A stretch of 32,000 bases of DNA from contig NZ_AP012549.1 in the NCBI RefSeq assembly GCF_000829235.1, positions 690,001 to 722,000 of the forward strand, in the 5' to 3' direction. Every line of letters starts with the position of its first letter. The stretch's first letter is position 1. The translations under genes were made by a program, and so were the position numbers. Positions 3,318 through 31,300 of the stretch are shown here, piece after piece. Below the pieces are notes generated by a model, which saw nothing but the letters and a program-made list of their open reading frames with translations, made no database searches and was not told where the DNA came from. The DNA is from a cyanobacterium endosymbiont of Epithemia turgida isolate EtSB Lake Yunoko (GTDB taxonomy: Bacteria > Cyanobacteriota > Cyanobacteriia > Cyanobacteriales > Microcystaceae).

Positions 3318-3790
3318 ACCTCAAATTTACCCTAATTTTTTGAGTGAGATAGCTTAATTATCATTTTTTATCATTCAAATTGTAGAAAAAATACACAGAT
3401 AACAAATTATTAATCAATAAAGTATATTTTAAAATTAGAATTTAGGTTTTGTATGAAAAAATAGTAAATAAATTTTAAAATATCAACTTACCGAATACTT
3501 ATAGATGATAGTAGGTTGTGTTTAAATCTACGTATAAGTCAATTTATTTAAAAATAAAAACATAAAGAAGTTTACTTTTGAGTGTAAGTCAAACCATCTG
3601 AATTAGAATTACTAATTAACTACTCTGATCAGTTGTTTTCTTAAGAATATTGCGACCCATTGAACTAGATAAAAAAGGTTGACAAACCCTATGACCATAT
3701 GGGTAAAAAATACGTAAAGCTATTGCGGTTCAGTCTTTTAAATCGGCTTTTAAATGGGTAAAGCTAACCGATTATCCTAGTGAATATACT

Positions 3791-4083
3791 ATGCTCAATA
3801 ATAATCTCACTGACGCTCTACAATCTCTTCCAAGTGTCATCCGGTATAAAATAATTTGAAAGCTCTAGCTGCATACAATAAGGCGTTAAAGGTTTGTACT
3901 CCTCAAAATACTCCTGTTGAATAGGCTCACACTATTTCAAATAAGGCAAACGTTTTATTGAATTTAGCTGATGATGTTGAGCATCCTGAGAAGGGCAATC
4001 AAAATAATATGATGGAAGCTAAAACTTACTATTTAAAAGCCCAAGGAGCATTTAGTCAATACGGACAATGGGAACGAGTATAA
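3791..4083 (+). pseudogene. TPR-repeat protein remnant
   Basis: Translation gives ALAAYNKALKVCTPQNTPVE*AHTISNKANVLLNLADDVEHPEKGNQNNMMEAKTYYLKAQGAFSQYGQWERV*. This is a TPR-like A-x-x-Y-x-x-A-L helix pattern with an in-frame TAG. The upstream ATG segment (3791-3858) sits in a different frame. Confidence 0.45.
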
Positions 4084-4162
4084 ATCATGAAAAACGCTTT
4101 ACAAAATATAGAGGTATAATTAGAAAGTTGGTAATTTAATTTCTCTAAGGAACGTAATTAAA

Positions 4163-4432
4163 ATGACTGAAATTTTAGGTGACTTAGGAACAGATACAAG
4201 CCTTCATAGTTTTTTTGTAAACCTAATGATGGGAGAGATAACCCTAGTAACAGGCTTACTCTGGTTAGTAGTAGCTGCTATCATTTCTGTTGTTGGTGGA
4301 GCTATGGGTGGAGTGTTATTGGCGGGGAAGGATATTGGCTATCAATTGTCTGCCATGTTGGGTAGTTTATTTGGTCCTGCTGGAGTTATTCCAGCTGTTG
4401 CCGTTGGACTTATTTTGTTGAGATTAATGTAG
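4163..4432 (+). CDS. Hypothetical glycine-rich small membrane protein (89 aa)
   Basis: Intact ATG ORF with an AAGGA upstream. It has two Gly/Ala-rich hydrophobic helices (LLWLVVAAIISVVGGAMGGVLLAG and LFGPAGVIPAVAVGLILL). The next ORF starts 12 nt downstream. Confidence 0.55.
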   Translation: MTEILGDLGTDTSLHSFFVNLMMGEITLVTGLLWLVVAAIISVVGGAMGGVLLAGKDIGYQLSAMLGSLFGPAGVIPAVAVGLILLRLM

Positions 4433-4444
4433 GAGTTACAGATA

Positions 4445-4666
4445 ATGTTAAAACTTACCTGGTATAGTGCGAAATTGTTTTTTAAAGGAAAATTAATTCG
4501 TGACACTGGATATTTTTACAAACAATACGCTTTAGGGTTTTTTATCGGACTATTGTTATTAGTCGGATTGTCTAAAATGGAGGTTAATTTAGCTTTGGCT
4601 ATTACAGTGTCTAGTCTAGTGACAGGGATGCTTATGCCTTTTTTGTTTAAAGATATAAAAATGTAA
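4445..4666 (+). CDS. Hypothetical small membrane protein (73 aa)
   Basis: Intact ATG ORF preceded by AGGAG about 10 nt upstream. It has two hydrophobic helices and appears to be co-transcribed with 4163-4432. Confidence 0.5.
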   Translation: MLKLTWYSAKLFFKGKLIRDTGYFYKQYALGFFIGLLLLVGLSKMEVNLALAITVSSLVTGMLMPFLFKDIKM

Positions 4667-4689
4667 TGATTTTCCACATTGAGTTATTC

Positions 4690-4733
4690 AGATTCTATAG
4701 TGGCTAGCTATTAACTATTCACTATAGAATTTT
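4690..4733 (+). terminator. Possible intrinsic terminator after the two-gene membrane cassette
   Basis: An 11-bp perfect stem, attctatagtg (4692-4702) with cactatagaat (4720-4730), plus possible flanking G-U and A-T pairs, followed by TTT. The 17-nt loop is large and the T-run is short, so this is a weak call. Confidence 0.3.
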
Positions 4734-4933
4734 AACTGTTGATATATAAATAAATCTATCTCCACATCAGGACAAGTGAAGATATTAAAAAGCCTAGCAA
4801 AAGAAATTAGTCCCTGTGAGCAAATAACATCTTAATGGGATAAAAATCAGAAGGTGATTGTTAAAAGGTACAGTAAAAGAATCACATCAAGAAAAGGTTA
4901 ACTCGTATAGTTCCTAGAATTAAACAAAAATCA

Positions 4934-5239
4934 ATGGATATATTGCGCCATGCAGTTGAGGGTAAAATTGTTTATAGATTATTACGTTATAATCAATTAA
5001 TTAAACCTCTAACTCCGCTCTTAGAAGAACGTATTCGAAAAACATTATAAGCTGTTCAATTAAGAGCAAAAAGTCATAATGAAAATATAGAATTGGTGGC
5101 GATTGAACTACCTAATAGTGTCAAAGTTCAATTGATTCGGACTTGTAAGAATTGTGCAACTTCTAGCCTAACCCCAAAACAGGAGTTAAACAGGTGATAA
5201 AAACTTATTGTCGTAAAATCACGTCCTATCAGTGAATAA
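4934..5239 (+). pseudogene. nfu: NifU C-terminal-domain (Nfu-type Fe-S scaffold) pseudogene
   Basis: A single frame reads ...LTPLLEERIRKTL*AVQLRAKSHNENIELVAIELPNSVKVQLIRTCKNCATSSLTPKQELNR**KLIVVKSRPISE*. This aligns with the Nfu pattern (GGNVELVEI.G..VKLRLQGACGSCPSSTMTLK.GIERKL) and the CxxC motif is retained as CKNC. The in-frame stops are at 5048-5050 (TAA), 5195-5197 (TGA) and 5198-5200 (TAA). Confidence 0.65.
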
Positions 5240-5316
5240 CTCTACAATAGTTAATTGTTAAGAATAACAGCTGTTTAAGTGGTTCATTTTCTTCATTCTA
5301 AGATAGAGGTTAGACA

Positions 5317-5619
5317 TTTTGAACAACTATTGACGAGATATTCAATCGAAGAATTTCACCGCTGTAAATTTAAGGATTAACGTTGATTTGAACCAGACAA
5401 CATGAGCAAGTAATTGTGCATAGTAATAGTTGTAATCATGTAACGATGCCCTTAGAAATTAAAAAAGTTGAAAATGGTATTTTAACCTGCTTATATCATG
5501 AATTTAAATATCGCTTAGCTAAAGAACAATGTTTAACGGCACTAGAAATATCTCTGGAAGCTTATTCCGTTAAACAATATGGATATCGCGTGTTAGTTCA
5601 AGTTTCTTCGGAGAAATGA
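5317..5619 (+). pseudogene. Small Rieske [2Fe-2S]-domain protein, N-terminally disrupted
   Basis: ORF 5416-5619 carries an exact Rieske motif, C-N-H-x16-C-L-Y-H (SCNHVTMPLEIKKVENGILTCLYH), but only about 10 residues precede it before a TGA at 5389-5391. Remnants of the N-terminal strand (FTAVNLRINVDLNQTT*ASNCA) lie upstream in another frame. A local near-duplication, agtaattgtgcat / agtaatagttgtaatcat, sits at the junction. Confidence 0.5.
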
Positions 5620-6586: not shown

Positions 6587-7324
6587 GTGGATAAAATTCG
6601 TACTGTTTCGGATACTAAACGGGATTTCTACACCCATCACGCCCGACCCATAAACTCTGTTTACCGCCGTTTTATTGAAGAGTTGTTGGTAGAGATACAC
6701 CTGCTCTCAGTTAATGTAGATTTTCGTTACGATCCTATTTATGCTCTAGGGGTTGTCACTTCTTTTGAGCGTTTTGTTCAAGGATATCAACCCCAAAAAG
6801 ACAAAGACTCTATTTTTTCAGCGTTGTGTTATTCAGTTGGAGGCAATGCTGAACAATATCTACAAGAAGCTCAAACTCTTTTAGCTCAGGTTAAAGGAAT
6901 GTCAGTGTCAGATTTCAGGGAAATTCTTAAAGCTGCTAGTTCACAAGTTCCTGACAATAGAACATTGTGTGAAATTTTTCAAGCAATTGCTCAAAATTCT
7001 CGGTTTAAATATAGTCGTCTGTTTACGGTAGGTTTATATACTCTAATAATGGAACTTGCTCCTGATTTAGTCACAAATCAGGAGCAAAGCAACCTAATTT
7101 TTAGTCAAATAGCTGAAGTGCTTCATTTATCTCCAGAAAAACTCCAAAAAGACTTAGATCTCTATCGTAGTAATCTCGATAAAATAGAACAGTTACTTGC
7201 TGTTGTTGAAGATGCCCTCAAAGCAGAACAAAAAAAACAAAAAAAAGTAACACAACAAACACAGACAACTAATTTTTCCGTTAATTCAGACAATGATTCT
7301 AAGGATGATTTGAATAACTCATAA
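6587..7324 (+). CDS. thf1: Thylakoid formation protein Thf1 (Psb29)
   Basis: 245-aa ORF with a GTG start. The N-terminus, RTVSDTKRDFYTHHARPINSVYRRFIEELLVEIHLLSVNVDFRYDPIYALGVVTSFERFVQGYQP, and the DLDLYRSNLDKIEQ motif match the cyanobacterial Thf1 I remember almost residue for residue. Confidence 0.88.
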   Translation: MDKIRTVSDTKRDFYTHHARPINSVYRRFIEELLVEIHLLSVNVDFRYDPIYALGVVTSFERFVQGYQPQKDKDSIFSALCYSVGGNAEQYLQEAQTLLAQVKGMSVSDFREILKAASSQVPDNRTLCEIFQAIAQNSRFKYSRLFTVGLYTLIMELAPDLVTNQEQSNLIFSQIAEVLHLSPEKLQKDLDLYRSNLDKIEQLLAVVEDALKAEQKKQKKVTQQTQTTNFSVNSDNDSKDDLNNS

Positions 7325-8099
7325 TGGATTTGTGCCAAAGTTTAGCTGGATTTAACTGAGAAAAAGGGAAAAGGGAATAGTTTAGAGAATTTGATAATCT
7401 TATTATCATCATATTATTGATATAAAACTCAAGTTATCAGTTTGGACTCTTTACTTTCTTCTAATCCCTAATTCTTGATTTATAATCCCCACTATAGCTA
7501 AAATTTAAAGACAAGAAAAAAGATTAACTTTCATAAAAGTTACTGATATATTTATCACTTTGTTGACGTTCTATATTAGTTACTAAATTAGCCTAAATTT
7601 CTTATATAATTAGGAGATCTTGATTAAGATTTTGGGATCTTTTGTCTAATTTTTAATAGAGATTCATAAGATAGAATACTCAAGAGATTTTGTAGATACA
7701 ATTTATATTTTATTTAATAATTTATGGATATTATCTATGGAAGTAACGGGTATTATTTTTTTATTTAAAACTGCTATGTTTTAGTTTGTTGATAAGTAGA
7801 TTTTTTAGAAAATACAAAAATAGACACTATATTTATAATAGTCAGTCAAAATCATAGTCTCGACTTTAAGGATTAAATAAATATTCTTAGCAAAATTTAT
7901 CTCCCATTGAGATTATTCTCAATAATCAGCAAACAATTGTTAATTTTTTTAAAAAAAAGTGCCGACTAGACTGAAGCTGACCCTAGCTGACAGTCAACTT
8001 CATTACAATAAACAATGATTACGCGACCAGCCCGAAGACTGAAAATCTAATCTTTTGGATCGAAGGGTGTGAGGAGACTAATTAAAGATTGTATTACTC

Positions 8100-8702
8100 A
8101 TGAATACCGCTCGAATTTCCCAGCTTATCCATTTGACTTACAGTTTACATCAATGGTTCCCAAAACTTATTTCTGACAGTCAACTTTGGTTGTTTTTAGT
8201 CATTTCCATTGTTGTAAGCCTTCCTTTGAAGAGTGTTTCTCAAAGTTTAGGAACTCTGCCCTTTCCCCCTCCTCTTCGAGTTCCTGAAAATGCAGTTCCT
8301 AATACTTCTACTGAACCAAGTTCTGAATTTAGTAGTTTTATTCCTGTTGAAGTAGTTCCAGCTAAACCTATGTCCCCTATGAGCGTTCGTGAATATACCT
8401 TTCAAGCTCCAACTAGCCACCCGTCTTCTGTCCCCGTCAGCCCTGTCACTCCTAGAAGCTCGGCTTCATCTTCCCAATCAAACAAGACTCCTAGTCTCTA
8501 TCGAGTAGAAGTCGTGGGTAAAAATACATTGCTTTTATCTCAGGTTCAAACTGTGGAACCTCTTGCGTTTATTCGTCAAAGTGAGGGGGTTATTCATGCA
8601 GGGATATTTAAACAATCCCAACAAGCTCAAAAAAGGGTTGTTGAATTGCAGCGCAAAGGGTTATCTGCAAGCGTCGTTCGAGTTTATGAAAGTAAACAAT
8701 GA
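8100..8702 (+). CDS. Hypothetical membrane-anchored Pro/Ser-rich protein with a SPOR-like C-terminal domain
   Basis: 200-aa ATG ORF with an N-terminal hydrophobic helix (LWLFLVISIVVSLPL) and a P/S-rich linker. The C-terminal segment YRVEVVGKNTLLLSQVQTVEPLAFIRQSEGVIHAGIFKQSQQAQKRVVELQRKGLSASVV follows the beta-alpha-beta pattern of SPOR-type domains. Confidence 0.55.
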   Translation: MNTARISQLIHLTYSLHQWFPKLISDSQLWLFLVISIVVSLPLKSVSQSLGTLPFPPPLRVPENAVPNTSTEPSSEFSSFIPVEVVPAKPMSPMSVREYTFQAPTSHPSSVPVSPVTPRSSASSSQSNKTPSLYRVEVVGKNTLLLSQVQTVEPLAFIRQSEGVIHAGIFKQSQQAQKRVVELQRKGLSASVVRVYESKQ

Positions 8703-8749
8703 CGTAATTAGATAGAAAACCATTGCAAATCAGCAGTCAATGTGTTGTC

Positions 8750-8801
8750 AAATTAGTCATACTAAAGATCAATGCTAATTAACTTTTAGTATGACTAATT
8801 T
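8750..8801. repeat. Perfect 17-bp inverted repeat (hairpin) downstream of the 8100-8702 gene
   Basis: aaattagtcatactaaa (8750-8766) pairs perfectly with tttagtatgactaattt (8785-8801) across an 18-nt loop. It is followed by A7 on the + strand, so it is not a canonical + strand terminator. Confidence 0.8.
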
Positions 8802-9269
8802 AAAAAAATGTCACTGAAACAGATTAAAGTCTTAGTGGGGTTTAGTTTATCTAACAAATCATATAAACTTTAATAAAATACATGTCAACCTTGATTCCTT
8901 TACATTAATTTCTGTGACAAATATTTATTATACTTATTTATATAAGTTAATAAAATTCGAATTGAAGGAGTCATAACAATCATGTAAATATTGTTATTAT
9001 CTTATTTGTTATTAGTTTAGTCGTCGCTGTAGCAATCAAGACCACAGCTCATTTCCGTAGTGAATAAACTAAACCTATCCACAAGATAAACTAGCATTCT
9101 AAATCCTTTGAAATCTTGTTTCAATCTATAACTGATCAAGGAATAAACTACAGAGATAGTCACCCTGTATTTAACAAAGATGCGTATGGTAGTCAAAAAC
9201 TATCCATGAGCTAAAACCTGTAGTGGTTATAAGCTGTCAACCGCTATTAACTTTTTCAAGGAAGGATTG

Positions 9270-10175
9270 TTATTTATCATCAATCTTCGATAGCAATTTG
9301 ATAGCTTTCTGACAGAGAAGTTCATGACAGTGACCATTGCTGGCAATTAATCCTCCCCACTGTTCAACATCCCCCTTGTTATAGGCTAAAGGTGTGCCAT
9401 CAAAGTTAGTGAATTTTCCTCCTGCTTCTATTAGGAGCAACTCAGGAGCAGCGAAGTCCCAGTCTTTGGGAGCAGATTTGCCAGACAAAGAAGCATAAAC
9501 ATCAGATTTTTGTTCAAGAATAGTAGAAATCTTTCCTCCAACACTCCCCATATAGTTACAATCTTTCAATGGTAAGCTATTGATCAATTCCTGAAAACGA
9601 TCATCACGATGGGTTCGACTCACCACTAAGAACAAATCTTTCATTTGATTTCGTCCTGAAACACGAATAGGTCTAACTATTCCGTCGGGAGTTTCTACAA
9701 AAGTACCCTGATGTTTCGCTGCAAAATATAGTTTTTTAGCTTCAGGAATGCCAACTACGGAAACAACAGGATGACCTTTATAAACTAGGGCAATATGTAG
9801 AGCATATTCCCCAGTTTTATCAATAAAATCTCTAGTACCATCAAGAGGATCAATAATCCACACCCAGTCTTGAGGAATAGGATCAGTTTCTTGGTAAGTT
9901 TCTTCACTAAGATAACCAAAACTGTCAGGAGCAAAAACTTCTTGTAATTTCTCTAAAATATAGTGGTTGGCAGCCAAATCTGCCGCAGTGATTGGTCCAT
10001 CTTTTTTATCTTCATTAACATCTAGATTGCCTTTATTGGCTTCCCTTCGGTAGTAAGAACGAAGAATTTCAGTGGCTCCCCAAGCAACAGAGCGAACAAC
10101 CTTAAGAATTTCCTCTAAATTTTTGGTCTGTGTAGTTTCCAAAAGACCCTCAACTTTACTTTTTGTAATTTTCAA
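9270..10175 (-). CDS. Inositol monophosphatase family protein (CysQ/SuhB-like 3'(2'),5'-bisphosphate nucleotidase)
   Basis: 301-aa ORF with IMPase signature motifs (LSEET, WIIDPLDGTRDF, WDFAAPELLLIEAGG). The only available start in the N-terminal region is TTG (10175 or codon 12), so the start is uncertain. Confidence 0.8.
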   Translation of the reverse strand: MKITKSKVEGLLETTQTKNLEEILKVVRSVAWGATEILRSYYRREANKGNLDVNEDKKDGPITAADLAANHYILEKLQEVFAPDSFGYLSEETYQETDPIPQDWVWIIDPLDGTRDFIDKTGEYALHIALVYKGHPVVSVVGIPEAKKLYFAAKHQGTFVETPDGIVRPIRVSGRNQMKDLFLVVSRTHRDDRFQELINSLPLKDCNYMGSVGGKISTILEQKSDVYASLSGKSAPKDWDFAAPELLLIEAGGKFTNFDGTPLAYNKGDVEQWGGLIASNGHCHELLCQKAIKLLSKIDDK

Positions 10176-10256
10176 TTGTAAGATGATACCCTACCTGTCC
10201 TAAAAGTTTTTGAGTTTCTTAATAAAAAAAAATTTATCTTTTTTTTGAATAATTTT

Positions 10257-10678
10257 GCCCCCGTTTGCAGATCCCTAATAGCTTCAGGTTGGTTATTTAA
10301 GACTAGACAAACTTTAGCCCGTTAGAGGTAGACTTCAGCAAATTCATTATCTAGATATAAGGCATAGTTAAAATCAGCGATTGCTTGGGAATAGTTGTTT
10401 ATTTTAGTATAGGCAATGTCTCGATTGTAGTAGGATTCTGCATCGTAAATATTAAAGCGAATCACTTGAGTAAAATCTGCAATTGCCCCTTAATAATCTC
10501 CTTTAATTCCTTTTTCCATACCTTCAATCAAGATTTCTTCAAGGTTATGAACGTCATTGGACTGTCGACTCAAAAAAATAACTTCCTGGAAAGGACTATA
10601 GAGAAGACTATGTCCTTGCGTGAAGGATAAAACAATCAATATCTCAAGATAGTTAAAATAACATAAACTCATTATCAT
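10257..10678 (-). pseudogene. TPR-repeat protein remnant
   Basis: The reverse strand reads ...GIKGDY*GAIADFTQVIRFNIYDAESYYNRDIAYTKINNYSQAIADFNYALYLDNEFAEVYL*RAKVCLVLNNQPEAIRDLQTG. These are tandem TPR motifs (AIADF..AL.l.p..aeay.nRg) with at least two in-frame stops. ORF 10490-10678 is its 5' piece. Confidence 0.6.
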
Positions 10679-11214
10679 CAGGGTATGAAAGAAAGATAGT
10701 TTTTATATTATGATGTTGAATGCTTATAATTTTTAACAGATCTGGGAATTATTAGAGAAAATAGATTGTTCAATCAAAATAAATTTTCTCTATGCTCCTC
10801 TTCAGAGATATTGAGAGATTTACCTAATCTCTTTTTAGTAGCTAACTGATAGAGTCAGACTACATTAATTTAACTCAGATACAACAAGGATTGATCGAAC
10901 TCGAAATCTAGATTATCTGCTTATAATAGTTATTGAATAAATTACCAGTCAATCTATTCCACCTGAGTTAATGTGACAAAATTGAAACTTCATCAGAGGT
11001 GGGGATTTCCTTGGTAGTGACCATGGTAAATTTTTGTGATATCAATACAAACAATTTAGTAAGCGTGTCAAAAAACAATGTTCCTTGGTAACAGATGAGC
11101 ATTATTTAAGAGAATTACAATAAATTATCTGGTGAGGTCATGAACCTATATAAATAACAATACAATAATAAAAAGTAGTTTAACATTTATTGAGAATATA
11201 AATAATCTAGTTAA

Positions 11215-11333: not shown

Positions 11334-11851
11334 TCATTATAAACTAATTAATTTCACGAAATATTGAACATAAAAAAGATTTATTATCAATTACTATAAA
11401 AAGCTAGAAGAGAGCTATAAGTAGCTATAGTATAATGCAAAAATAGTTAAATGTCTTTCAAAGACAACATCTATACATTTTCTAATTATTTAAAATTTCA
11501 ATAAACTATTTCTTATATTCATAGAAGTCAATAAATAATTAGAAATTTAATCATTTTTAGATAAGATATTTACTTATTGTAAAGTATATCTTTAAGAAAT
11601 TGTAAGGCTATCAATATAGCATAAAAGATTAAATAAATTACTGTAGACTACAACAATAAACAAGATAAATCACTGAAAAACTGCAGTTTACCCAAACTAT
11701 CCTAGTAAATGGTTTTATGCAGATATTTTTAAAAAATCTTGTATTTTCTTCTCAAGAAAGCCTATTTATTAGTCTTTCTCGTGAAAAGGGTATGATCTTC
11801 TTCCATTTAGAAAATAAGAAAGTGTTGACCAAAGTATATCCATAAGAAACT

Positions 11852-11894
11852 GCAGATGATTACAGGTTTCTAAGAGAAGCTTGTAATCATCTGC
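11852..11894 (+). promoter_or_regulatory. 15-bp stem hairpin in the gcvH leader region
   Basis: gcagatgattacagg (11852-11866) pairs with cttgtaatcatctgc (11880-11894), giving 14 Watson-Crick pairs plus one G-U. It sits 100 nt upstream of the gcvH ATG. Its function is unknown. Confidence 0.35.
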
Positions 11895-11994
11895 TACAGA
11901 TTACAAGATTTATCTTGAAATTTGTAACAAAATTCTATCTCCTTCAGCATTAGCGGTGTTAAACTTACGTTTGCTGTGAATTTGAGAATAAAAA

Positions 11995-12390
11995 ATGGAC
12001 TTAGAATATCCCGATGATCTAAGATACTTAGATTCCCATGAATACATTCGTTTAGATGGAAAAATCGCTACTATTGGCATTAGTGCTTATGCGCTCGAAC
12101 AACTTGGAGATATAGTGTTTTTAGAATTACCTGAAGTAGGAGATTCCATAGAGATTGGGGAAGTTTTTGGGGCAATTGAATCAGTAAAAGCGGCTGAGGA
12201 TCTCTATCCTCCCGTATCAGGTACTGTTGTAGACCGCAATGAACAGATGATTGAAACTCCTGAACAGATCGCTGATGACCCGTACGGAGATGGATGGTTA
12301 CTCAAAATTCGGGTTGAAAACCTTGATGATCATTTGGACAATACTTTATCTGCTAGTGAATATCAAGCTCAAGTAGAAGGAGAAGAATAA
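11995..12390 (+). CDS. gcvH: Glycine cleavage system H protein
   Basis: 131-aa ORF with the lipoyl-lysine motif [18 protein letters not shown], and with [12 protein letters not shown] and [13 protein letters not shown], all typical of GcvH. Confidence 0.92.
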
Positions 12391-12420
12391 CATTATTGAT
12401 ATGTTACTTTGCCATAAATG

Positions 12421-12456
12421 AACCCAAAAAAGGTGTTCCCATTACGGAGAACACCT
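12421..12456 (-). terminator. Intrinsic terminator on the minus strand, immediately 3' of the psbA remnant
   Basis: An 8-bp GC-containing stem, aggtgttc (12431-12438) with gaacacct (12449-12456), and a 10-nt loop. On the minus strand it is followed by TTTTTTGGGTT, the complement of 12421-12431. Confidence 0.55.
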
Positions 12457-12464
12457 GAAAATCA

Positions 12465-13530
12465 ACTAGAGTTAAAATGTTGGCTATAAATAATAGGGGC
12501 TGTTCACCATTAGCTAAATCAAAGGGTAGTTGTGAGCGTTTCGTTCGTACATTATTTTCATTATTCCAATTCCCACATAGTTTAAGACATCAGTCTAGGT
12601 ACTAATCGTACGATCTTAAGAAGATGATATTAATTGGTCGAAATTAAATTCACTTAAGGTTAAAGTCCATTAAGTTGATTTCCATTGTTGTTAACCAGAT
12701 ACTAATAACAGGCTAGTCCTCTAAAAAAAGAAGTGTAAAGCACAGCTATCATTAAAAGATACATATTGAAAGATTAAGTGGACCAAATAACCGTTAACAG
12801 CCATAATATTATAGTTTTTCTCTTCTTATTCCAAGTCAGAATTATAGTTCTGAGACTCTATATGGCAGAAAATAGTGCCCCACTAAATACACCGACAACC
12901 CCCAACATGTAAAATTGGTGTATCAATATATTGTATTCTGTTTGAAATACAACCACAAAATTAAAAGTTCCATTGATTCCTACGAGCATTTTATCAGAGA
13001 GGTATCCTTGACTAATTAGGATAGACGAGGAAAACAGTGGTTGTCGTAGAAATACACATACTATAAGTAATAAAAATTCAAGGAGCTATTCCTAAACGGT
13101 TAATAGAGTTCTTATTGTTTTCCCATTTAACAGAAAATACCAATCAGAAAATAAAAAATTCCTAACTGACAAGGATTTTCATTGTATAGCGACTCATCTA
13201 GGGAGGTTGTTCACCACAAAATAGGGTAAAAGTGCAATTTCATGGTGTTAGACGAAGAGATAACCGCTCCAAAAGTAATATGATTTCTATCAAGGAGAAA
13301 ACCGCTACAGTTTCGCTGATATGATAAATATCTACAGTAAGAGGGAGAGTATTTTAGCTGGGTAGAGTCGCAATGAAAGCAATAATAAAACAAATAGTTA
13401 AAGTAGGAATAGTGAGAATAAGAACAACACCAAACCAACCGACATATAGACGGTTATTAATGCCAGGCAACCACTGACAAAACCGTTCCCATAGAAAAAT
13501 ATCTTATCTAGTGTGTAAAGTTACTTTTAT
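12465..13530 (-). pseudogene. psbA: Photosystem II D1 protein pseudogene
   Basis: Reverse-strand translation recovers D1 from end to end, but across several frames. The N-terminus reads [43 protein letters not shown]. Another frame gives ..HITFGAVISSSNTMKLHFYPILW. A further stretch reads [50 protein letters not shown], and the C-terminal end reads MYERNAHNYPL / DLANGEQ. The start-codon position reads ATA (13528-13530), codon 9 is TAA (13504-13506), and a TAG (12858-12860) aligns with His215. Confidence 0.93.
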
Positions 13531-13825
13531 AGGAAAATGATTACTGAATCACAATATTTAAAGTCAGTAATGTAGCAATGACTACGTTTTCTGCATCTAT
13601 AATCTAAGTGTATTTATTCCTTTAGTCTATAATCCACTATTCTTCCTTGTTTTTAACAAAATCATATCCTTTATTATAAGTTTAATAAGTCAAAATAGTT
13701 TTTTAAATTAAAAACCTTAAAATCTTACTATATTTACTTGTATTCTATTAGACATCAAGGTGATTGGTGACGAAACCCTATTTTCTAATATAGTTTTGAT
13801 AAACTGTCATTTTATTTTACTTCTA

Positions 13826-14995
13826 TTAACTATTTCCTGTTCGATTTAAAACATCTTCGGCTGATAGACCATCCCCTTGATAGCCAAAGTACCATAAGGC
13901 GGCTGCGGCTTGAGCGCGAGTGACAGTTTTTTTAGGTTGAAACAAGATTATATAACCAAAAACACGGCGGACGTTCCCCTGTTCTCCATTTTGGAAATCA
14001 GCATATAATCCCCGTAATCCTATAGGCTCAATTTGAGTAGTGTCCTGAAACCCCCAAGTTTCTCTAATCCCATCAATAGAAGCTTTAGGTAGACTTTTCC
14101 CCATGTCTAAAGGAACTTTCCAAGCAATTAAATCAGACCGTGTTAACAATTCATTAGGACGGAATAAAAAAGTGTTACTGTCTCCTGTCAGATGAGAGGA
14201 AATTAACCCTGCCTCGGCTAATCCTTGAATTACGGCAAAATCAGCGTCATTTGAAGGAACATCACTAAAAACCGGTTGAGCATTTTTTAATCCTAAATGG
14301 ATTTGTTGCTCAGGATAATCTTGATAAAATTTATTTTTAGCCTTGACTAACCATCGTGCGTATTCCCGACGAGTAATCGGTTCATTAGGGTTAAATTGGT
14401 TATTTTCTTTAGCAGTTAAAATACCCAAGTTTGCTACATCTTTAACATAGGAACGTAAAGCTTCAGGGACTTGATTAAGATCAGAAAAATTAGTGGGTTT
14501 ACTAGTAATAGTTGAAGACTGATCAAAAGAACTATTATTTAATTGAGTCGTATTAACCTGTTTATATCTAATGGTAAATTCTGTTGTTGATTTCATGGGA
14601 AATAGAGATAGTCTAATCTTTAGATTATTTTTTTGAGCAATTAATGAACTTTCTTGAGAGTCAGACGAAAAAGACTGAATAATTTCCCATTTTTGCAACT
14701 TTAATTGCTGTTCATAAAAATTCTTAACTGTCTCAGTAGGTTCATTGGTTTTCCAACTAACTTCTCCGTTATTTTGTGTAATTTTTTGATTTATTTCTTG
14801 TAGAGTAGCTTGGGGATATTGGGGAATTTCTGAGGGAAAATTATTGGGAAGTTTAATGATTGGATTTTGATGAATTTCTGAATTTTTTGTAAATTTAGGA
14901 TTTGCAGAAAATCGACTTTCTAACCCTTCTATTCCCCTACATGCTGTTAATAGTCCTATTAAGGAAAGCAAAATACTGTAACGTATCACAACCAT
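13826..14995 (-). CDS. S-layer-homology (SLH) domain lipoprotein
   Basis: A signal peptide with the lipobox LLTAC, followed by three SLH-like repeats (FSDLNQVP..YVKDVANLGILT...PITRREYARWLV; FSDVPSNDADFAVIQGLAEAGLIS...LLTRSDLIAW; ...FQPKKTVTRAQAAAALWYF). I prefer the ATG at 14995 to the TTG at 15007 used by the ORF track. Confidence 0.8.
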   Translation of the reverse strand: MVVIRYSILLSLIGLLTACRGIEGLESRFSANPKFTKNSEIHQNPIIKLPNNFPSEIPQYPQATLQEINQKITQNNGEVSWKTNEPTETVKNFYEQQLKLQKWEIIQSFSSDSQESSLIAQKNNLKIRLSLFPMKSTTEFTIRYKQVNTTQLNNSSFDQSSTITSKPTNFSDLNQVPEALRSYVKDVANLGILTAKENNQFNPNEPITRREYARWLVKAKNKFYQDYPEQQIHLGLKNAQPVFSDVPSNDADFAVIQGLAEAGLISSHLTGDSNTFLFRPNELLTRSDLIAWKVPLDMGKSLPKASIDGIRETWGFQDTTQIEPIGLRGLYADFQNGEQGNVRRVFGYIILFQPKKTVTRAQAAAALWYFGYQGDGLSAEDVLNRTGNS

Positions 14996-15007
14996 AAGCC
15001 TAAACAA

Positions 15008-17197
15008 TACCTAAAGAATTAAGAGTTCGTTTATCTAGACTAACGCATTACAGCAAAAGTAGAGTAAGCAGATATTATGTCTCTTCTAAATATAGAGAAT
15101 ATAATTATTCTTTTTTATCTCAAATATTACTGTTCTTACAAAGCAAGCGACATAATAAGTATACAGCTTTAAATAAAATTTTAAAAATATAAATTATTTT
15201 ATATCTCTATATCTACTAAAGTAGAGCTATTTTTCTATTGTTTTATTTTTTTAAAAAAATAATAAAAATTTTTATTCAGTCAATAATAATGTAGCTATTT
15301 ACTTTATTTTATAATGTTTATTTTTACAATATTGTACTAATAATTTTTACTGTATTTTATATAAAATAACGTATTTTATATAAGTGAATAAATATTGCCA
15401 TGTTTTTATTTTTTTATCTTTTTTCTTGAAAAATATTTATCTTAAATACTTTAAAATAAATATTTTTTTCTTTTTTTGTATATTTATAATTTCAACTACA
15501 AAGTACTTTTTTTAGATTGAAAATTATCAATTTTTAGCTATCTATTTTATTAAACCTAATATCTCAGATGAACGATTACAGCCTAAAAATCTAGATTGAA
15601 CTATCGAAAATTCTATTTTGATATTTTTTTTATTTGCTTTCTACTTTTTTTTCAACGTTAAAGCGATTACTTTATGTTCTCATACATCTCATATTTAAGT
15701 TCATCTCTTAAGATGTTACTTTTGCATTTGCAATTATATTGTTTAAAAAACTTCGACATGAAAGTCTTATTTGGACAAATAGGAAAAAATTGGAGATCTA
15801 AAACTATAATTTTATCGTTAAATCTATAATAGAAAAAAATATAACTATGACCTTTTAACTTTATATAAATCTCTTTATCATCATGAAGATGTACTCAAAT
15901 ATAATTACTGAATCTATTAGTATAATACTAATTTTTTTTAAATATTTAAGATAAATTTAAGACAATAACCTTATCCCAACCCCGACTATAAATATATTTT
16001 TTGACTGTGGCAGTATACTACTCTCCTCTATTTTTAGAATAAACTTTATACCATACAATAGTAAGTTTTTTATGTGGTTATTTACATTCAAAGATTTTAG
16101 GAACTAACTTCTACCATAAATAGGGAATAACATTGCTGCACCCTTTATCTGTTTTCTACCTAAAATTAGAATGACTTTAAATAAATTTAACCTGAAATTT
16201 AATTTTTTAGACTCCGACTTCTCATATTAGTTAGCTAGGATCCGATCTCAAATAATATTGTTTCGCATAATTAACTTTTACATGATATATAACAAATAGT
16301 TAACAACTCATCCTCATCCTAAACTTCAAAATTTATTCTGTAAACATTGAAGCTACACTTTTTGTTCTAATCACAACTAAAAAACATTTGCATTCATAGT
16401 GAATTTCTTTGCTTAAAGCCTATATTGCTAATTAACTACTAAGTTAATTAGCAATATTACGGATAATATTTATCTTGATCATTAGTAGCTATGATACCTA
16501 CATCAAAAATTCCAAAGCTTGTTTTTGGTTTATTTGAAACGCTGCATTTTACATCCACTTCATCTCAAATTGTTGCGTTAAGCTGAGATTGGAAAATTTT
16601 GACTTTATACAGACCTCTTGAAAAAATAAAAACCTCATTTGTACTACCCCAACAAAGTTAATCCCACAAAGGTACTTTTTTTAGAAAATCTAACAAAAAC
16701 TTAACAAAATGTCTAGTTTAAAACCTATAAACTAGGCATTTTTAGCTTGGACAGCATTTGGAGACCCAATTAATAAGCTCTATGAGTCGACAGAATATGC
16801 ACATAACATTATTCTTGGCAAGATATTTGTCAACAATTTACTCAGCATGAACAAAATATTAAGTATATCTACTCACAAAAACAGAAAATTCGAATAACTT
16901 TCTTTCAAATCATTTGACGAATACTGTAAAGAATCTGTAATAATCTAAAAGGGCAGTATATTTTGCAGTCCTTATTCATTGCCAGAACTGTTAAAGATTA
17001 AAACAAAATCGTGAGTGATCACCCTATCAGCACAGCTAGAGGTAAGATAATTTCGACGGCACAAGCCAATATTACTAACAATAATCTGGGTTTTATAGAA
17101 ATACGTCTCCGAAAAATTTCTGGACAAGTCTCTATATAAATCATATTTCGATATGGCTGATCATTGCTAAACTAATGAGTTTTTTTTAAACCAATCA
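15008..17197. other. 2.2-kb extremely AT-rich gene desert
   Basis: No ORF of 60 codons or more occurs on either strand apart from the edge artefact 17167-17373. The region has long A/T homopolymer runs and low-complexity strings, and I found no recognisable protein remnant in any frame. Confidence 0.75.
16422..16457. repeat. Perfect 16-bp stem hairpin inside the desert
   Basis: atattgctaattaact (16422-16437) is the exact reverse complement of agttaattagcaatat (16442-16457). The loop is the 4 nt acta. Confidence 0.8.
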
Positions 17198-25311: not shown

Positions 25312-26009
25312 ATCTTGATGGTCAAAATTTTAAATTGTATTGCAAATATGACCATGTTACCTCGACAAAATAAGTGAAATGTCACAAAACCCTTCAGACA
25401 GGAGAGTTTTCTCTAGCTATAAACTAGGTTTTTGGCTGATCTTTATAAGTTAGAGGATAATGTGGTAGCCAATACTAACCCAATAAATTGTTCAAGTTGT
25501 AAGTTCAGTAAACTTTGGATTCTCAAATAGTTTTAAGTAAGTTACTATGTCCTATGTTAGTTAGAATGGATAGGATTTTAAATCCCAAAAACCATAAACA
25601 CTAGAGTTAGCAGGAGTGCTCATAAGGCATGAATAGATTCGGCCCAAAATAATTAACATTAGACTGAATTCGGACTATAGGTGAGGAGGGAGTGTACGGT
25701 TAATTTTTTACTATCATAAATATTTTTTATTTATCAAAATTTTTCTATCTCCTTACCTCCAAAAGTTTTTCCTCAAAAATATTTATCAAGAAAAAAACAG
25801 TTTTATACTTAATAAAGTTAATTGGAAGACTCGGCAATCCTAGCATAATATCAGCAGTTAAGAATAATTTAAAAGAGTTATGCTGCTCCTAAGAATCTCT
25901 CATCTCTAGTGAAGGGAGTGTCAAAGCGGGTACCTTTTTATGATATCATTGCTGACGGTTCGCTATTGGCTTTATGGATTAATTCTAATAGCTTCACTTG
26001 TCTAACACT

Positions 26010-26432
26010 ATGCCCGTGATTGATCATCAGACCCCGACGGCTAAAACCGTTTCCCTCTCAGTTGATCCCATGAGAGATTACTATCAATTGCAACGCACTT
26101 TGTTGTTGTTGAGTTTATCTCTAACGGTGATTATTTTTATCTGTGTCTGGACTGTATATTCCCTAAATACTGCTCTTAACTACCTAGTAGGAGCTTTTGT
26201 CGGCATTGTTTATTTAAAACTATTAGCCGGGGACGTAGCACAAGTTGGTTTAGTCAAAAAACGGATAGGAACTAGAGGGATGGGATTATTTGTGACTTTA
26301 ATCGTTGTGGCTAGTCAATGGCAGAAAATGCATATTCTCCCAGTTTTTCTGGGATTTTTGACTTATAAAGCCGCCATAATTGCCTATATGCTCACAAGTA
26401 TTCTAATACCAGAATCTGAGCCAAGGCATTAG
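26010..26432 (+). CDS. atp1: ATP synthase protein I (atp1, operon leader gene)
   Basis: A small four-helix hydrophobic protein located directly upstream of the a subunit, as in cyanobacterial atp operons. I prefer the ATG at 26010 to the TTG at 25998 used by the track. Confidence 0.7.
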   Translation: MPVIDHQTPTAKTVSLSVDPMRDYYQLQRTLLLLSLSLTVIIFICVWTVYSLNTALNYLVGAFVGIVYLKLLAGDVAQVGLVKKRIGTRGMGLFVTLIVVASQWQKMHILPVFLGFLTYKAAIIAYMLTSILIPESEPRH

Positions 26433-26488
26433 GGCATCGAGAAATTTAACCATTCTCGTATTTTGATTAAGTAAATAAATCTCACCGA

Positions 26489-27229
26489 ATGACAATGTTA
26501 GATGGTTTGAGTTTTGTACAAACATTTCCTCTTGCTTCATTAGAAGTCGGTCAGCATTGGTACTGGGAAATTGGTAACTACCGGGTACATGGACAAGTAT
26601 TCATGACCTCTTGGTTCGTAATTAGCCTCTTGGTAATCGCATCTTTAGCCGCCACTCAAAATGTGCAACGCATCCCCAGTGGAATGCAAAATTTTATGGA
26701 GTATGTCCTAGAATTTTTGCGAGACTTGGCTAAAAATCAATTGGGAGAGAAGGAATATCGGACTTGGTTACCTTTTATTGGGACCTTGTTTTTATTTATC
26801 TTTGTCTCTAACTGGTCAGGTGCGTTAATTCCTTGGGCGCTAATTAAACTACCAGAAGGAGAATTAGCTGCTCCTACCAACGACATCAATACCACTGTTG
26901 CCTTAGCATTACTAACTTCTCTAGCGTACTTCTATGCTGGTCTAAGCAAGAAAGGATTGAGCTATTTTTCTCACTATATAGAGCCAATTCCTGTTCTCTT
27001 GCCAATTAAAATCTTAGAAGATTTTACCAAGCCTTTATCGCTAAGCTTCCGTTTGTTTGGAAACATCCTAGCTGATGAATTAGTGGTGGCCGTATTAGTC
27101 TTCTTAGTGCCTTTATTCATTCCCCTACCCATTATGGCCTTGGGGTTGTTCACTAGTGCGATTCAAGCCTTAGTATTTGCTACCTTAGCGGGAGCTTACA
27201 TTCATGAGGCGATCGAAGAAGAACATTAA
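26489..27229 (+). CDS. atpI: F0 ATP synthase subunit a
   Basis: 246-aa ORF with [21 protein letters not shown] near the N-terminus and the essential Arg motif [13 protein letters not shown]. The gene is named atpI in cyanobacteria and atpB in E. coli. Confidence 0.93.
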
Positions 27230-27379
27230 TCCTTATAAGGGATGAAGCAATGATCGAGCGTCGTAAATTGAATATTAGGATCTGTTATTGAAATATGTCC
27301 AAAACATAGGACAATATCAGATGAGTTCATTTTTACAATTCAACATCGAGAATTGCTGAACTCTTCAAGCATATAGGGG

Positions 27380-27409
27380 TTGACTAGTAGGGCTTTTTTC
27401 CTCGAGAAT
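27380..27409 (+). promoter_or_regulatory. Sigma70-like promoter candidate inside the atpI-atpH spacer
   Basis: TTGACT (27380-27385), an 18-nt spacer, then GAGAAT (27404-27409), lying 150 nt upstream of atpH. This rests on sequence resemblance only. Confidence 0.25.
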
Positions 27410-27503
27410 CAGAGAGAACTCCGCCGTACGACGATGGAGCCGGTTCTGACCTTCGGTCAATAACTATTCATTGCTTGGGAACGTCAACCTCCATGGTTGT
27501 TAA

Positions 27504-27803
<300 letters not shown>

Positions 27804-27811
27804 AAAGTTTT

Positions 27812-27989
27812 GAAACAGTAGAGACGCACGTTGTGTGAAGGCAAAAAGCGAAAAGAGACAATACAGTCCTTACTACTTTGACTAATGTTAAGTGTCAACT
27901 CAGATAATATCGGGTGTAGTAAATAAAAAAAAGTTTGTATTGACTTGGCCACTTGCGACTTCAATCATTGTCTCGTCTCTACTGATTTC
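27812..27989 (+). repeat. Nested long-range inverted repeat in the atpH-atpG spacer
   Basis: Outer helix: gaaa-cagtagagacg (27812-27826) pairs with cgtctctactg-a-tttc (27974-27989), giving 15 bp with a 1-nt bulge. Inner helix: gagacaat (27855-27862) pairs with attgtctc (27967-27974). The structure begins 9 nt after the atpH stop codon. Confidence 0.7.
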
Positions 27990-28068
27990 TCTAGCACACT
28001 AAGCAAAGATTCGTTAGCCGCTTAGATCTTTTTTGTTTTGACTGAAAAATCAATGGGAACCGCAAAAA

Positions 28069-28500
28069 ATGTTTGATTTTGATGCAACTATGCCTTTAAT
28101 GGCTTTGCAATTTGTTCTCTTGGCAGTTATCCTCAATGGAATTTTTTACAAACCCTTGAATAAAGCATTAGATGAGCGAGCAGATTATATTCGTCAGAAA
28201 GAGACTGACGAAAAGAAGCGTTTAGCTAAAGCTAAGGAATTGTCCCTACAATATGAAGCGCATCTTGCTGACGCGCGTAAGCGGTCTCAAGAGATAATCG
28301 CACACGCTCAGGCTGAAGCACAAAAAATGACAGCAAAAACTTTAGCTAATGCTCAACAAAAAGCTCAAGAGGAAAAAGAGAAAGCCGCCCAAGAAATAAC
28401 CCAACAACGCCAAGAAGCACTGGTTGTTCTAGAACAACAGGTTGATACCCTCAGCCGTCAAATTCTAGAAAAACTTCTAGGGACTGAATTGGTAAATTAA
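28069..28500 (+). CDS. atpG: F0 ATP synthase subunit b'
   Basis: 143-aa [43 protein letters not shown] is followed by a long charged coiled coil. Its position between c and b is typical of subunit b' (cyanobacterial atpG). Confidence 0.9.
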
Positions 28501-28537
28501 ATCTACCATCGATTGAGTTTTAACTAGCAAAATACGT

Positions 28538-29074
28538 ATGATCGATTCTTTTTTTATATTAGCTACAGAAGCCCATGAAGCTGCTAAAAGCTGGTTCGGC
28601 TTAGATTCTAATCTTCTGGAAACGAACCTTCTTAATCTTGCTATTCTTATTGGGGTGTTGGTATTCTACGGCAGCAAAGTTTTGAAAACCGTCTTAAATG
28701 AGCGGCAACTGCAGATTGCTGATGCTATTCAAGAAGCTGAAGAGCGCCAACGCAAAGCAGCTACTGCTTTAGAAAAGGAACAGCAGAAATTAACGCAAGC
28801 TCAAGCTGAAGCTGAACGAATGTATCAAAGGGCTAAAGACAGAGCTGCTGCCCTAGCTGACGAAATTACAGAAAAAAGTAGGCAAGATATGGAGCGTCTT
28901 AAAGAGACAGCTGCAGCTGACCTTAGTAGGGAGCAAGAACGAGTTATTGCTCAATTGAACAAACAAATTGTTCAAATAGCCCTCAATAAAGCGGAAAGCC
29001 AACTCAAAGAACAGGTCAATGAGGATATACAACAGCTCCTAATTGACCGTAGTATCGCTCAATTAGGAGGTTAA
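28538..29074 (+). CDS. atpF: F0 ATP synthase subunit b
   Basis: 178-aa ORF with a single N-terminal transmembrane helix (LLNLAILIGVLVFYG) followed by a long Ala/Glu/Gln-rich helix. Confidence 0.9.
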   Translation: MIDSFFILATEAHEAAKSWFGLDSNLLETNLLNLAILIGVLVFYGSKVLKTVLNERQLQIADAIQEAEERQRKAATALEKEQQKLTQAQAEAERMYQRAKDRAAALADEITEKSRQDMERLKETAAADLSREQERVIAQLNKQIVQIALNKAESQLKEQVNEDIQQLLIDRSIAQLGG

Positions 29075-29077
29075 TTA

Positions 29078-29635
29078 ATGAAAGGTTCCCTCATTAGTAC
29101 TGCGATTGCCGAACCTTACGCTCAGGCCTTGATGTCAGTGGCTTTGAGCCACGATCTTGCCGATGCCTTTGGGGAAGAATGCCGGTCTTTAGTCACCTTA
29201 CTAGAAAAGTCCCCTGATTTGGAAGCATTTATTGCTTCTCCAGTGATCAAAGAAATAGATAAAAAAACTGTTTTGGGAAAAATCATGGGAGAAGGTACTA
29301 ATTTGTATCTACTAAATTTTTTGATGTTGTTGATAGATAAACGGCGGATTATCTTTCTTGAAAAAATTTGTCGGCAGTATCTTACCCTATTGCGGAAGTT
29401 AACCAATACCGTTTTAGCCGAAGTTACTTCAGCCCACAAATTAAGCAGCGAACAAAGTGAGTCTATAGCCAACAAAATTGAAGAACTTACTGGTGCGCAA
29501 GGCGTGGAAATCAAGACTAGAATTGATCCCAACTTGATTGGGGGTATCACTATTAAAGTAGGGTCTCAAGTCTTTGATGCCAGCCTTCGAGGACAACTAC
29601 GCCGTGTCAGTCTTAGCCTAGGCGGTATTGCTTAG
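29078..29635 (+). CDS. atpD: F1 ATP synthase subunit delta (OSCP)
   Basis: 185-aa ORF with a GGAGG Shine-Dalgarno sequence. It contains [13 protein letters not shown] at the N-terminus and [23 protein letters not shown] at the C-terminus. The gene is named atpD in cyanobacteria and atpH in E. coli. Confidence 0.9.
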
Positions 29636-29683
29636 GTTATTTGTGTTTCATTCTATTTATTCGACTTCTAGAACAACTTAACT

Positions 29684-31195
29684 ATGTTTAGTATCAGACC
29701 CGACGAAATTAGCAGCATTATTCGCCAGCAAATTGAATCCTACGATCAAACTGTAACGGTTTCTAATGTAGGAACAGTGCTTCAAGTAGGAGATGGAACT
29801 GCCCGTATTTATGGCTTAGAACAAGCCATGGCTGGAGAACTTCTTGAATTTGAAGATGGAACTATCGGAATCGCTCTCAACCTTGAAGAAGATAACGTTG
29901 GGGCCGTATTAATGGGAACCGGTCTCGATATTCAAGAAGGAAGTACCGTTAAAGCCACCGGAAAAATTGCACAAGTTCCCGTAGGGGAAGCAATGATAGG
30001 ACGGGTGGTTGATTCCCTAGGTCGCCCTATTGATGGTAAAGGGGATATAAACACTTCTGAAACTCGTCTAATCGAATCAATGGCCCCTGGGATTATTGCT
30101 CGTAAATCAGTTTGTGAGCCCATGCAAACAGGGATTACAGCTATTGATGCGATGATTCCTGTGGGACGGGGACAACGAGAATTGATTATCGGTGATCGTA
30201 AAACTGGAAAAACGGCAATTGCGATTGATAGCATCATTAATCAGAAGTCCGAAGACGTAATCTGTGTCTATGTAGCAATTGGACAAAAAGCGTCTACTGT
30301 CGCCCAGGTAATAAGAACCCTCGAAGACAATGGTGCGATGGACTACACCATAGTCGTTGCCGCTAACGCAAATGATCCAGCTACATTACAGTATCTTGCC
30401 CCCTATACAGGAGCCACCCTCGCTGAATACTTTATGTATAGGGGCAAAGCTACCCTGGTCATTTACGATGACCTCTCCAAACAAGCTCAAGCTTACCGTC
30501 AGTTATCTTTGCTACTAAGACGTCCTCCTGGTCGGGAAGCTTATCCTGGTGATGTGTTCTATATCCACTCTCGTTTATTAGAACGTGCGGCAAAACTTAG
30601 CGATAAGCTCGGTGGTGGTAGTATGACAGCGTTACCCGTGATTGAAACTCAAGCAGGTGACGTTTCTGCTTACATTCCTACTAACGTAATTTCTATTACT
30701 GACGGACAGATTTTCCTTTCCAGCGATCTGTTTAACTCAGGTTTTCGTCCCGCTATTAACGCAGGGATTTCAGTAAGCAGGGTAGGATCTGCGGCTCAGA
30801 CCAAGGCCATGAAAAAGGTTGCTGGTAAATTGAAGCTAGAATTGGCACAATTTGCTGAACTAGAAGCCTTCTCCCAGTTTGCCTCTGACTTAGATGCCAC
30901 CACTCAGTCTCAACTGTCACGGGGTCAACGGTTACGTCAAGTATTGAAGCAGCCTGAAAATTCCCCCTTAGCAGTGTGGGAACAGGTAGCAATTTCCTAT
31001 GCAGGGTTAAATGGTTATCTTGATGAAATTGCTGTGGAGAAGGTGACTGAATTTACTATGGGACTACGGAACTATATTAAAACCAGTAAAGCCAAATTTA
31101 CTGAGATCGTTGGAACTGAAAAACAACTTACCGATGAAGCAGAAAGCCTCCTCAAAGAAGCTATCAAGGAACATAAACAGACCTTTGCCGCGTAA
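29684..31195 (+). CDS. atpA: F1 ATP synthase subunit alpha
   Basis: 503-aa ORF with the P-loop GDRKTGKT and the segments [47 protein letters not shown] and [31 protein letters not shown]. Confidence 0.97.
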
Positions 31196-31300
31196 TTGAC
31201 CATAAATAAGTCAGTGGTTAGTCATTTCCTGACGAACGAGAAGGAGGGCTAACCACCCATGACCCCTTATGAATAATTAATCCCACAAAAAATAAAAAAT

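Follow-up and report, generated by a model that had tools for sequence, protein, structure and literature searches.

A psbA relic in a spheroid-body chromosome of Epithemia, probably dead since before the sampled lineages split

Does a D1-like locus in the chromosome of a cyanobacterial endosymbiont still encode the D1 protein of photosystem II (PSII), and if not, what is it and how long has it been decaying? We analyzed a 32,000-nt stretch from a cyanobacterium endosymbiont of Epithemia turgida (contig NZ_AP012549.1, positions 690,001 to 722,000), termed here the window, and all coordinates are those of the window unless another sequence is named. The reading that we favor, with a probability of about 95%, is that the locus is the non-functional relic of a standard psbA gene in the non-photosynthetic, N2-fixing spheroid body of Epithemia (E. 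adnata / E. turgida group), that the gene was dead before the lineages split, and that it has drifted neutrally since. The features on which the analysis turns are the following.

12480..13530, minus strand: psbA (PSII D1) pseudogene, running from the ex-start ATA (13530-13528) to the ex-stop CAA (12482-12480)
12861..13016, minus strand: longest best-preserved stop-free block, about D1 residues 163-214, with H190Y and H198Y, followed by TAG at 12858-12860
13338..13361, minus strand: 24-nt insertion after codon 57, which includes a TAA and is found in all spheroid-body lineages that retain the segment
12861..12862, minus strand: junction of a 46-nt frameshifting deletion, with codons 215 to ~229 lost (His215 and part of the QB-site loop)
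11995..12390, plus strand: intact gcvH (Pfam GCV_H; dN/dS 0.06-0.10), the downstream convergent neighbor and a synteny anchor
13826..15007, minus strand: intact SLH-domain protein gene (dN/dS ~0.3), the upstream same-strand neighbor and a synteny anchor

Three-frame translation of window 12300-13700 placed D1-like peptide pieces (among them HFYPI.W..SLDE.LYN..FLIGIFC, GTFNF.VVFQ.E.NIL.H.F.MLGV.GVF.GALFSA and NAHN.P.DLA) in three minus-strand frames. A tblastn search with a D1 query gave three high-scoring pairs in frames -3/-2/-3, covering D1 residues 1-341 with a summed E of 6e-54. The query was a Synechocystis D1 sequence and served only for locating matches; all quantitative comparisons used the psbA orthologue of the free-living 'unicellular cyanobacterium SU2', taken from sequence data. 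In the SU2 codon register 335 of the 360 codons are alignable, with 62% amino-acid identity, and the claim of a preliminary description that nearly all of D1 can be traced on the minus strand holds. The remnant measures 1051 nt, vs. 1083 nt for the intact SU2 orthologue, and at its 3′-end (~12480) the ancestral stop TAA has become CAA. The frame-repaired translation matched Pfam Photo_RC (PF00124) over profile positions 1-240 of 260 (121.7 bits, E = 4e-35, cut-off 27), compared with 309 bits for intact SU2 D1. In a phmmer search of the PDB, the block at 12861-13016 matched the D1 chains of solved PSII structures over residues 163-213 (E ~1e-16), and the D2 chains matched it much more weakly than D1. 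By these sequence measures the resemblance to D1 is well above chance.

Lesions were called from a MAFFT alignment of the whole SLH-gcvH intergenic region, with SU2 and the spheroid-body copies, in the SU2 codon register. The window remnant differs from SU2 psbA by 11 indels (+35 nt and -67 nt in total), eight of which shift the frame (-1 at codon 68, +1 at 135, +1 at 162, -46 at 214-229, +2 at 273, +1 at 297, -1 at 341 and -19 at 347), the other three being in frame (+24 at codon 57, +3 at 96 and +3 at 327). The preliminary description had counted "at least two frameshifts"; the frameshifts are real, but their number had to be raised to eight. The -1 deletion at codon 68 is what places the HFYPIW and GWFGV segments in separate frames, as had been noticed. 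Nine stops lie in the ancestral register (E9, E98, W126, W131, W142, Q241, W278, Q310 and W317). The initiator was correctly read as ATA and codon 9 (Glu) as TAA, and the TAA reported after an 11-residue peptide falls within the 24-nt insertion.

Tyrosine now stands at the H118, H190, H198 and H332 codons, in agreement with the earlier reading of His190 and His198 in the best-preserved block. The same reading erred over His215, which it took to be mutated to TAG: codons 215 to ~229 are deleted, and the TAG after ..FSAI arises across the junction 12862|12861. The cofactor ligand set of a functional D1 is thus incomplete (H190Y, H198Y, H332Y and deleted H215), and Y161, D170, E189, H272, E333, H337, D342 and A344 are still readable. 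With ATA at the start position, no uninterrupted frame of ~360 codons, and a longest ORF of 75 aa across mixed frames in the region, the locus lacks the attributes of a functional psbA. The frame-aware alignment to D1 that had been proposed as a check gave the same picture, namely no uninterrupted frame, eight frameshifts and nine stops.

The source of the window was assessed by comparison with other assemblies. The Logan assembly of run SRR29904087 was 100% identical to it over 11,087 bp spanning the locus. Identity to CP076462.1, the spheroid-body chromosome of E. adnata 19Bon2 (PMC11131595 Table 1), was 96.7% over 16.5 kb and 97.7% over 3.9 kb, and the GcvH protein of the window had exact matches on both CP076462.1 and the SRR29904087 Logan contig. 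Identity to the spheroid bodies of R. gibberula, R. gibba and E. clementina was 80-88% in colinear blocks. The GC content of 20-46% per kb and the sparse ORFs fit a spheroid-body genome. These comparisons indicate that the window is part of a spheroid-body (diazoplast) chromosome closely related to that of E. adnata. The E. adnata remnant differs from that of the window at 1.2% of sites and has all 11 indels and nine stops, and one extra stop.

Contigs from environmental samples (JGI metagenomes 3300082793 and 3300045954; Logan SRR32618685) are 89-95% identical to the window and encode an identical GcvH. Two of them, ~90% identical, carry most of the psbA lesions of the window together with extra ones of their own. 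The contigs stand for additional, unsampled spheroid-body lineages present in public metagenomes.

When genome contigs were searched with the SLH-domain protein (13826-15007), four further spheroid-body genomes were found (R. gibberula, R. gibba, E. clementina and 'Cyanobacterium sp. uoEpiScrs1'), as were SU2 and more distant Crocosphaera-group genomes. The SU2 locus contains the SLH gene (10001-11182), an intact 360-codon psbA (11499-12581) and a convergent gcvH (13176-12781), in the order seen in the window; the position of gcvH is alike in SU2 and all spheroid-body loci. The product of SU2 psbA is a standard D1 with the full Mn/Ca ligand set, 92% identical to the Synechocystis D1 query. D1-like remnants occupy that same slot in five of the five sampled spheroid-body lineages, which bears out the earlier view that the gene decayed in place. 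With an intact syntenic orthologue and the neutral evolution described below, the remnant would classify as a unitary (orthologous) pseudogene.

Many lesions predate the sampled lineages. Among the indels, +24 at codon 57, +1 at 135, 162 and 297 and +3 at 327 are common to all spheroid-body lineages that retain the region, and so are the stops at W131, W142, Q241, Q310 and W317 and the H190Y replacement. Since these lesions are common to all, the common ancestor of the lineages must already have had a dead psbA, and the pattern points to a single ancestral inactivation. Other deletions separate the lineages. The 46-nt deletion is present in the window and in the E. adnata, R. gibberula and R. 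gibba spheroid bodies and absent in the E. clementina spheroid body and uoEpiScrs1; the last two have in common a 14-nt deletion at codon 260. Both deletions are clean phylogenetic markers for grouping lineages. The smallest genome, that of uoEpiScrs1 (2.48 Mb), has lost ~40% of the remnant, the whole 5′ third included, through deletions of 275 and 113 nt.

Differences between the remnants are spread evenly over the codon positions. At positions 1/2/3 they amount to 0.215/0.193/0.210 in comparison with the R. gibberula spheroid body and to 0.196/0.213/0.196 in comparison with that of E. clementina. Relative to SU2 there is an excess at the third position (0.318 vs. ~0.20), which we read as the trace of an earlier period under selection. 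The p-distances of the remnant to the R. gibberula, R. gibba and E. clementina copies (0.209, 0.158 and 0.204) resemble the distances at four-fold degenerate sites pooled over eight neighboring intact genes (0.182, 0.157 and 0.191 for the same three spheroid bodies), and they are in line with the dS of the neighboring genes (0.15-0.36, NG86). The preliminary description had proposed a long relaxation of selection, and this even spread and four-fold-site rate sustain it.

Substitutions from GC to AT outnumber those from AT to GC (165 vs. 59). From 0.44, the GC content is down to 0.335 in the copy of the window and to 0.26-0.27 in those that have decayed furthest, with an implied equilibrium of ~0.19 (positions 1 and 2 only). 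There is about one indel per 22 substitutions and almost no net length loss; near-balanced small indels of this kind would let the genomes stay at ~2.8-3.0 Mb with low coding density. Elsewhere in the window, a 2.2-kb segment without genes (15008-17197) has neither a recognizable Pfam domain nor a recognizable SU2 homologue. The GC content is as low as 19.8% at 15001-16000, which equals the mutational equilibrium derived from the psbA remnant, and the segment is probably DNA decayed past recognition.

D1 is nearly invariant in free-living cyanobacteria, so the divergence from SU2 at the first two codon positions is an approximate measure of all the neutral decay that the window lineage has undergone. 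These positions gave p = 0.205, or 0.24 after Jukes-Cantor correction. The deepest split among the sampled spheroid bodies has a mean distance of 0.246, half of which, 0.12, would have accrued since the split. Assuming a constant rate, we infer that about half of the decay (~0.12 of ~0.24 substitutions per site) preceded the crown split. As a rough clock, this would put the loss of photosynthesis about twice as far back as the crown radiation. The remnant is thus useful as a calibrated neutral ruler, as nearly all of its position 1 and 2 changes date to after selection ended.

These data are consistent with a history in which (i) the ancestor abandoned oxygenic photosynthesis and lived on host photosynthate; (ii) psbA, thereby without selective value, was inactivated prior to the divergence of the sampled spheroid-body lineages; and (iii) the remnant has since changed by neutral drift, with mutation strongly biased from GC to AT. 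Its near-full length would persist because small indels roughly balance and large deletions are rare, and not through any activity.

Whether any part of the locus retains a function was addressed through its flanks, where two further features lie.

13531..13612, minus strand: ex-psbA 5′ UTR/promoter region, still alignable with SU2
12431..12456, minus strand: psbA-sense intrinsic terminator (10-bp stem, 6-nt loop, T-run), between the convergent psbA remnant and gcvH

Conservation of the 5′ region across four spheroid-body lineages was not above that of the dead coding sequence (68% vs. 64% invariant columns, Fisher p = 0.5). Rfam (gathering threshold) and tRNA scans returned no match in the psbA region or in the rest of the window. 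The terminator hairpin folds with -14.3 kcal/mol (z = -2.3), and its stem is retained in all lineages. Between the gcvH stop and the hairpin (~12393-12427), 32 of 35 nt are invariant in four spheroid-body lineages, vs. 64% of the dead coding sequence. This block has no counterpart in SU2; it may be a 3′ UTR element of gcvH that arrived, or became fixed, in the ancestor of the spheroid bodies. The outermost 3′ flank thus probably retains a function, the simplest candidate being a role for gcvH.

The 24-nt hairpin GGTGTTCTCCGTAATGGGAACACC of the window and its copy in the E. adnata spheroid body are exact reverse complements of each other. The hairpin loop has thus been inverted between two genomes with 96.7% identity, and either orientation is found in other lineages. 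Depending on the orientation, it is the transcript of one strand or of the other that has a G·U pair in the stem in place of a C·A mismatch.

How these observations bear on other accounts of the locus can now be considered. We regard it as improbable that the remnant is kept for a non-coding role, in which the dead locus would not be wholly inert. Its former promoter, if active, and the kept terminator would then yield a discrete, stable non-coding RNA, or the DNA would separate the convergent units of the SLH gene and gcvH as a transcriptional buffer, spacer or terminator that gcvH needs. Such a role would account for every lineage keeping at least the 3′ part, and it has in its favor the presence of the remnant in all five lineages, the maintained psbA-sense hairpin and the near-invariant 35 nt beside the gcvH stop. 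However, neither the remnant body nor the 5′ region contains a conserved island, and both diverge as fast as four-fold sites; uoEpiScrs1 has dispensed with ~40% of the remnant, its entire 5′ third among it; no Rfam family matches; and the conservation is limited to the flank next to gcvH, for which psbA need not be invoked. A non-coding role is conceivable for the 3′-most ~100 nt, and the evidence argues against it for the gene body, from which we infer that no function of the former gene remains. An RNA-seq study of the R. gibba spheroid body counted reads on pseudogene features, and the text of its supplement has no psbA entry (PMC11131595).

The other alternatives fare worse. An intact gene garbled by sequencing or assembly errors is effectively refuted, and the preliminary description had rightly set it aside. 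AT-rich, homopolymer-rich DNA is liable to indel errors, and the codon 273 lesion does sit in a T-run, but errors would not recur in an independent read-level assembly (100% identical over 11 kb), in the E. adnata spheroid body (11 of 11 indels, nine of nine stops) and, as a subset, in four more distant genomes from different laboratories; nor do they account for 246 substitutions in a neutral pattern and replaced catalytic histidines. Several psbA copies are usual in cyanobacteria, and the remnant could in principle be a single dead paralogue of a multi-copy family in a still-photosynthetic organism, as in free-living Crocosphaera/Cyanothece, which have several psbA genes, or the photosynthetic symbiont Nostoc azollae. 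We hold this to be very improbable: the window belongs to a spheroid-body chromosome and has at least five further decayed genes, these genomes have no functional photosystem I (PSI) or PSII genes (PMC5638926), and 24 PSII and 11 PSI proteins are missing from all rhopalodiacean endosymbionts (PMC12903740). These published genome analyses of sister strains argue that the source organism has no working PSII. Hardly credible, finally, is a sentinel or rogue D1 (rD1), a naturally inactive form, as the ancestor. Relatives such as Crocosphaera subtropica ATCC 51142 carry an rD1 gene (cited in PMC10103950), but the orthologue at the syntenic position in SU2 encodes a standard D1 in which no Mn/Ca ligand is missing, and the D170, E189, E333, H337, D342 and A344 codons are readable in most lineages, which implies a standard ligand set in the ancestor. 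The locus has neither the intact ORF nor the ancestral loss of Mn-cluster ligands that would mark an rD1. A phage origin of psbA was rejected, since the locus is syntenic with a standard D1 and ligand codons have been retained.

The relic of a standard psbA does not stand alone, and comparison with SU2 ORFs and Pfam revealed five further gene remnants in the window.

3695-4113: remnant of a TPR protein, C-terminal part only
4746-5616: remnant of a NifU-Rieske fusion protein, spread over three frames
10226-10675: remnant of a second TPR protein, with two in-frame stops
10783-11175: remnant of a PilB/T2SSE-type ATPase, reduced from 776 aa to ~130 recognizable residues
19175-19312: DUF3370 fragment

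A Pfam scan of the stop-free segments of at least 30 aa in the twelve non-coding gaps detected no further photosystem remnants in the window; it matched only the Rieske remnant, the DUF3370 remnant and a truncated atpG. The TPR/NifU-Rieske block of SU2 (locus 7197-9828) adjoins the SLH gene on its upstream side, whereas in the window (3687-5616) it lies ~8 kb from that gene in the opposite relative orientation, which suggests a local rearrangement between SU2 and the spheroid bodies.

Some genes with a bearing on thylakoids remain intact. Psb29, the 'thylakoid formation' protein, is tied to PSII repair via FtsH. Its gene, thf1 (6587-7324), is intact in five of five spheroid-body lineages despite the loss of PSII, and its dN/dS of 0.31-0.58 was the highest among the eight neighboring genes tested; either selection on it has weakened or it is kept for a PSII-unrelated role. 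Also intact is the ATP synthase operon (25998-32000: atpI, a, c, b′, b, delta, alpha and the start of gamma), which agrees with the proposal that the thylakoids retained in diazoplasts supply ATP through respiration (PMC10103950).

The decay of photosynthesis genes in spheroid bodies has been described before. The E. turgida spheroid body was reported to be without most PSI and PSII genes, and the R. gibberula spheroid-body genome to have no functional PSI/PSII gene and pseudogenized rbcL/rbcS and chlorophyll genes, pseudogenes there having been identified by tblastn of non-coding regions (Nakayama & Inagaki, PMC5638926). Spheroid bodies in general have no functional PSI/PSII genes and >100 pseudogenes (PMC5638926, PMC12903740, PMC11383321). 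Each genome has 99-148 annotated pseudogenes, with high synteny and no mobile elements (PMC11131595), and genome-size differences among rhopalodiacean endosymbionts have been ascribed to retained broken genes (PMC12903740). The psbA remnant and its lesions are not named in PMC5638926, PMC11131595 or PMC12903740, and the supplements of the first two have no psbA entry; the 2014 EtSB genome paper lay outside this comparison.

The closest known systems are the pseudogenes of the Epithemia/Rhopalodia spheroid bodies themselves (EtSB, RgSB, EcSB, EadnSB and RgibSB), which are the same organisms undergoing the same decay process, with low coding density and pseudogenized rbcL/rbcS and chlorophyll-pathway genes (PMC5638926, PMC11131595, PMC12903740). 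The phenomenon is thus already known, and the analysis of shared lesions and neutral rates is added detail and not a new kind of thing. Spheroid bodies are a textbook case of photosynthesis loss in a cyanobacterium, and one psbA relic has little weight as a discovery.

Pseudogenes of psbA are also present in the plastomes of plants and algae that are non-photosynthetic, such as holoparasitic Orobanchaceae and mycoheterotrophs, where frameshifts, stops and AT drift follow the loss of photosynthesis. They are relics of the same gene, but of a different age and in organelles with established gene transfer, whereas here the relic sits in a ~2.8-Mb bacterial chromosome. UCYN-A (Candidatus Atelocyanobacterium thalassa, the nitroplast) has a compact genome from which the PSII genes were deleted outright and in which PSI was kept, whereas psbA is still physically present here. 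Like the spheroid body, UCYN-A is a related unicellular diazotrophic endosymbiont that has lost PSII, but it has 57 pseudogenes vs. >150 (PMC11383321). The rD1 of C. subtropica ATCC 51142 comes from the same clade, belongs to the D1 family and cannot support water oxidation; rD1 is inserted into PSII at night by unicellular diazotrophic cyanobacteria (Wegener et al. 2015, as cited in PMC10103950). That protein is intact, expressed and selected and is without specific Mn ligands, whereas the psbA relic has no reading frame and descends from an ancestor with standard ligands.
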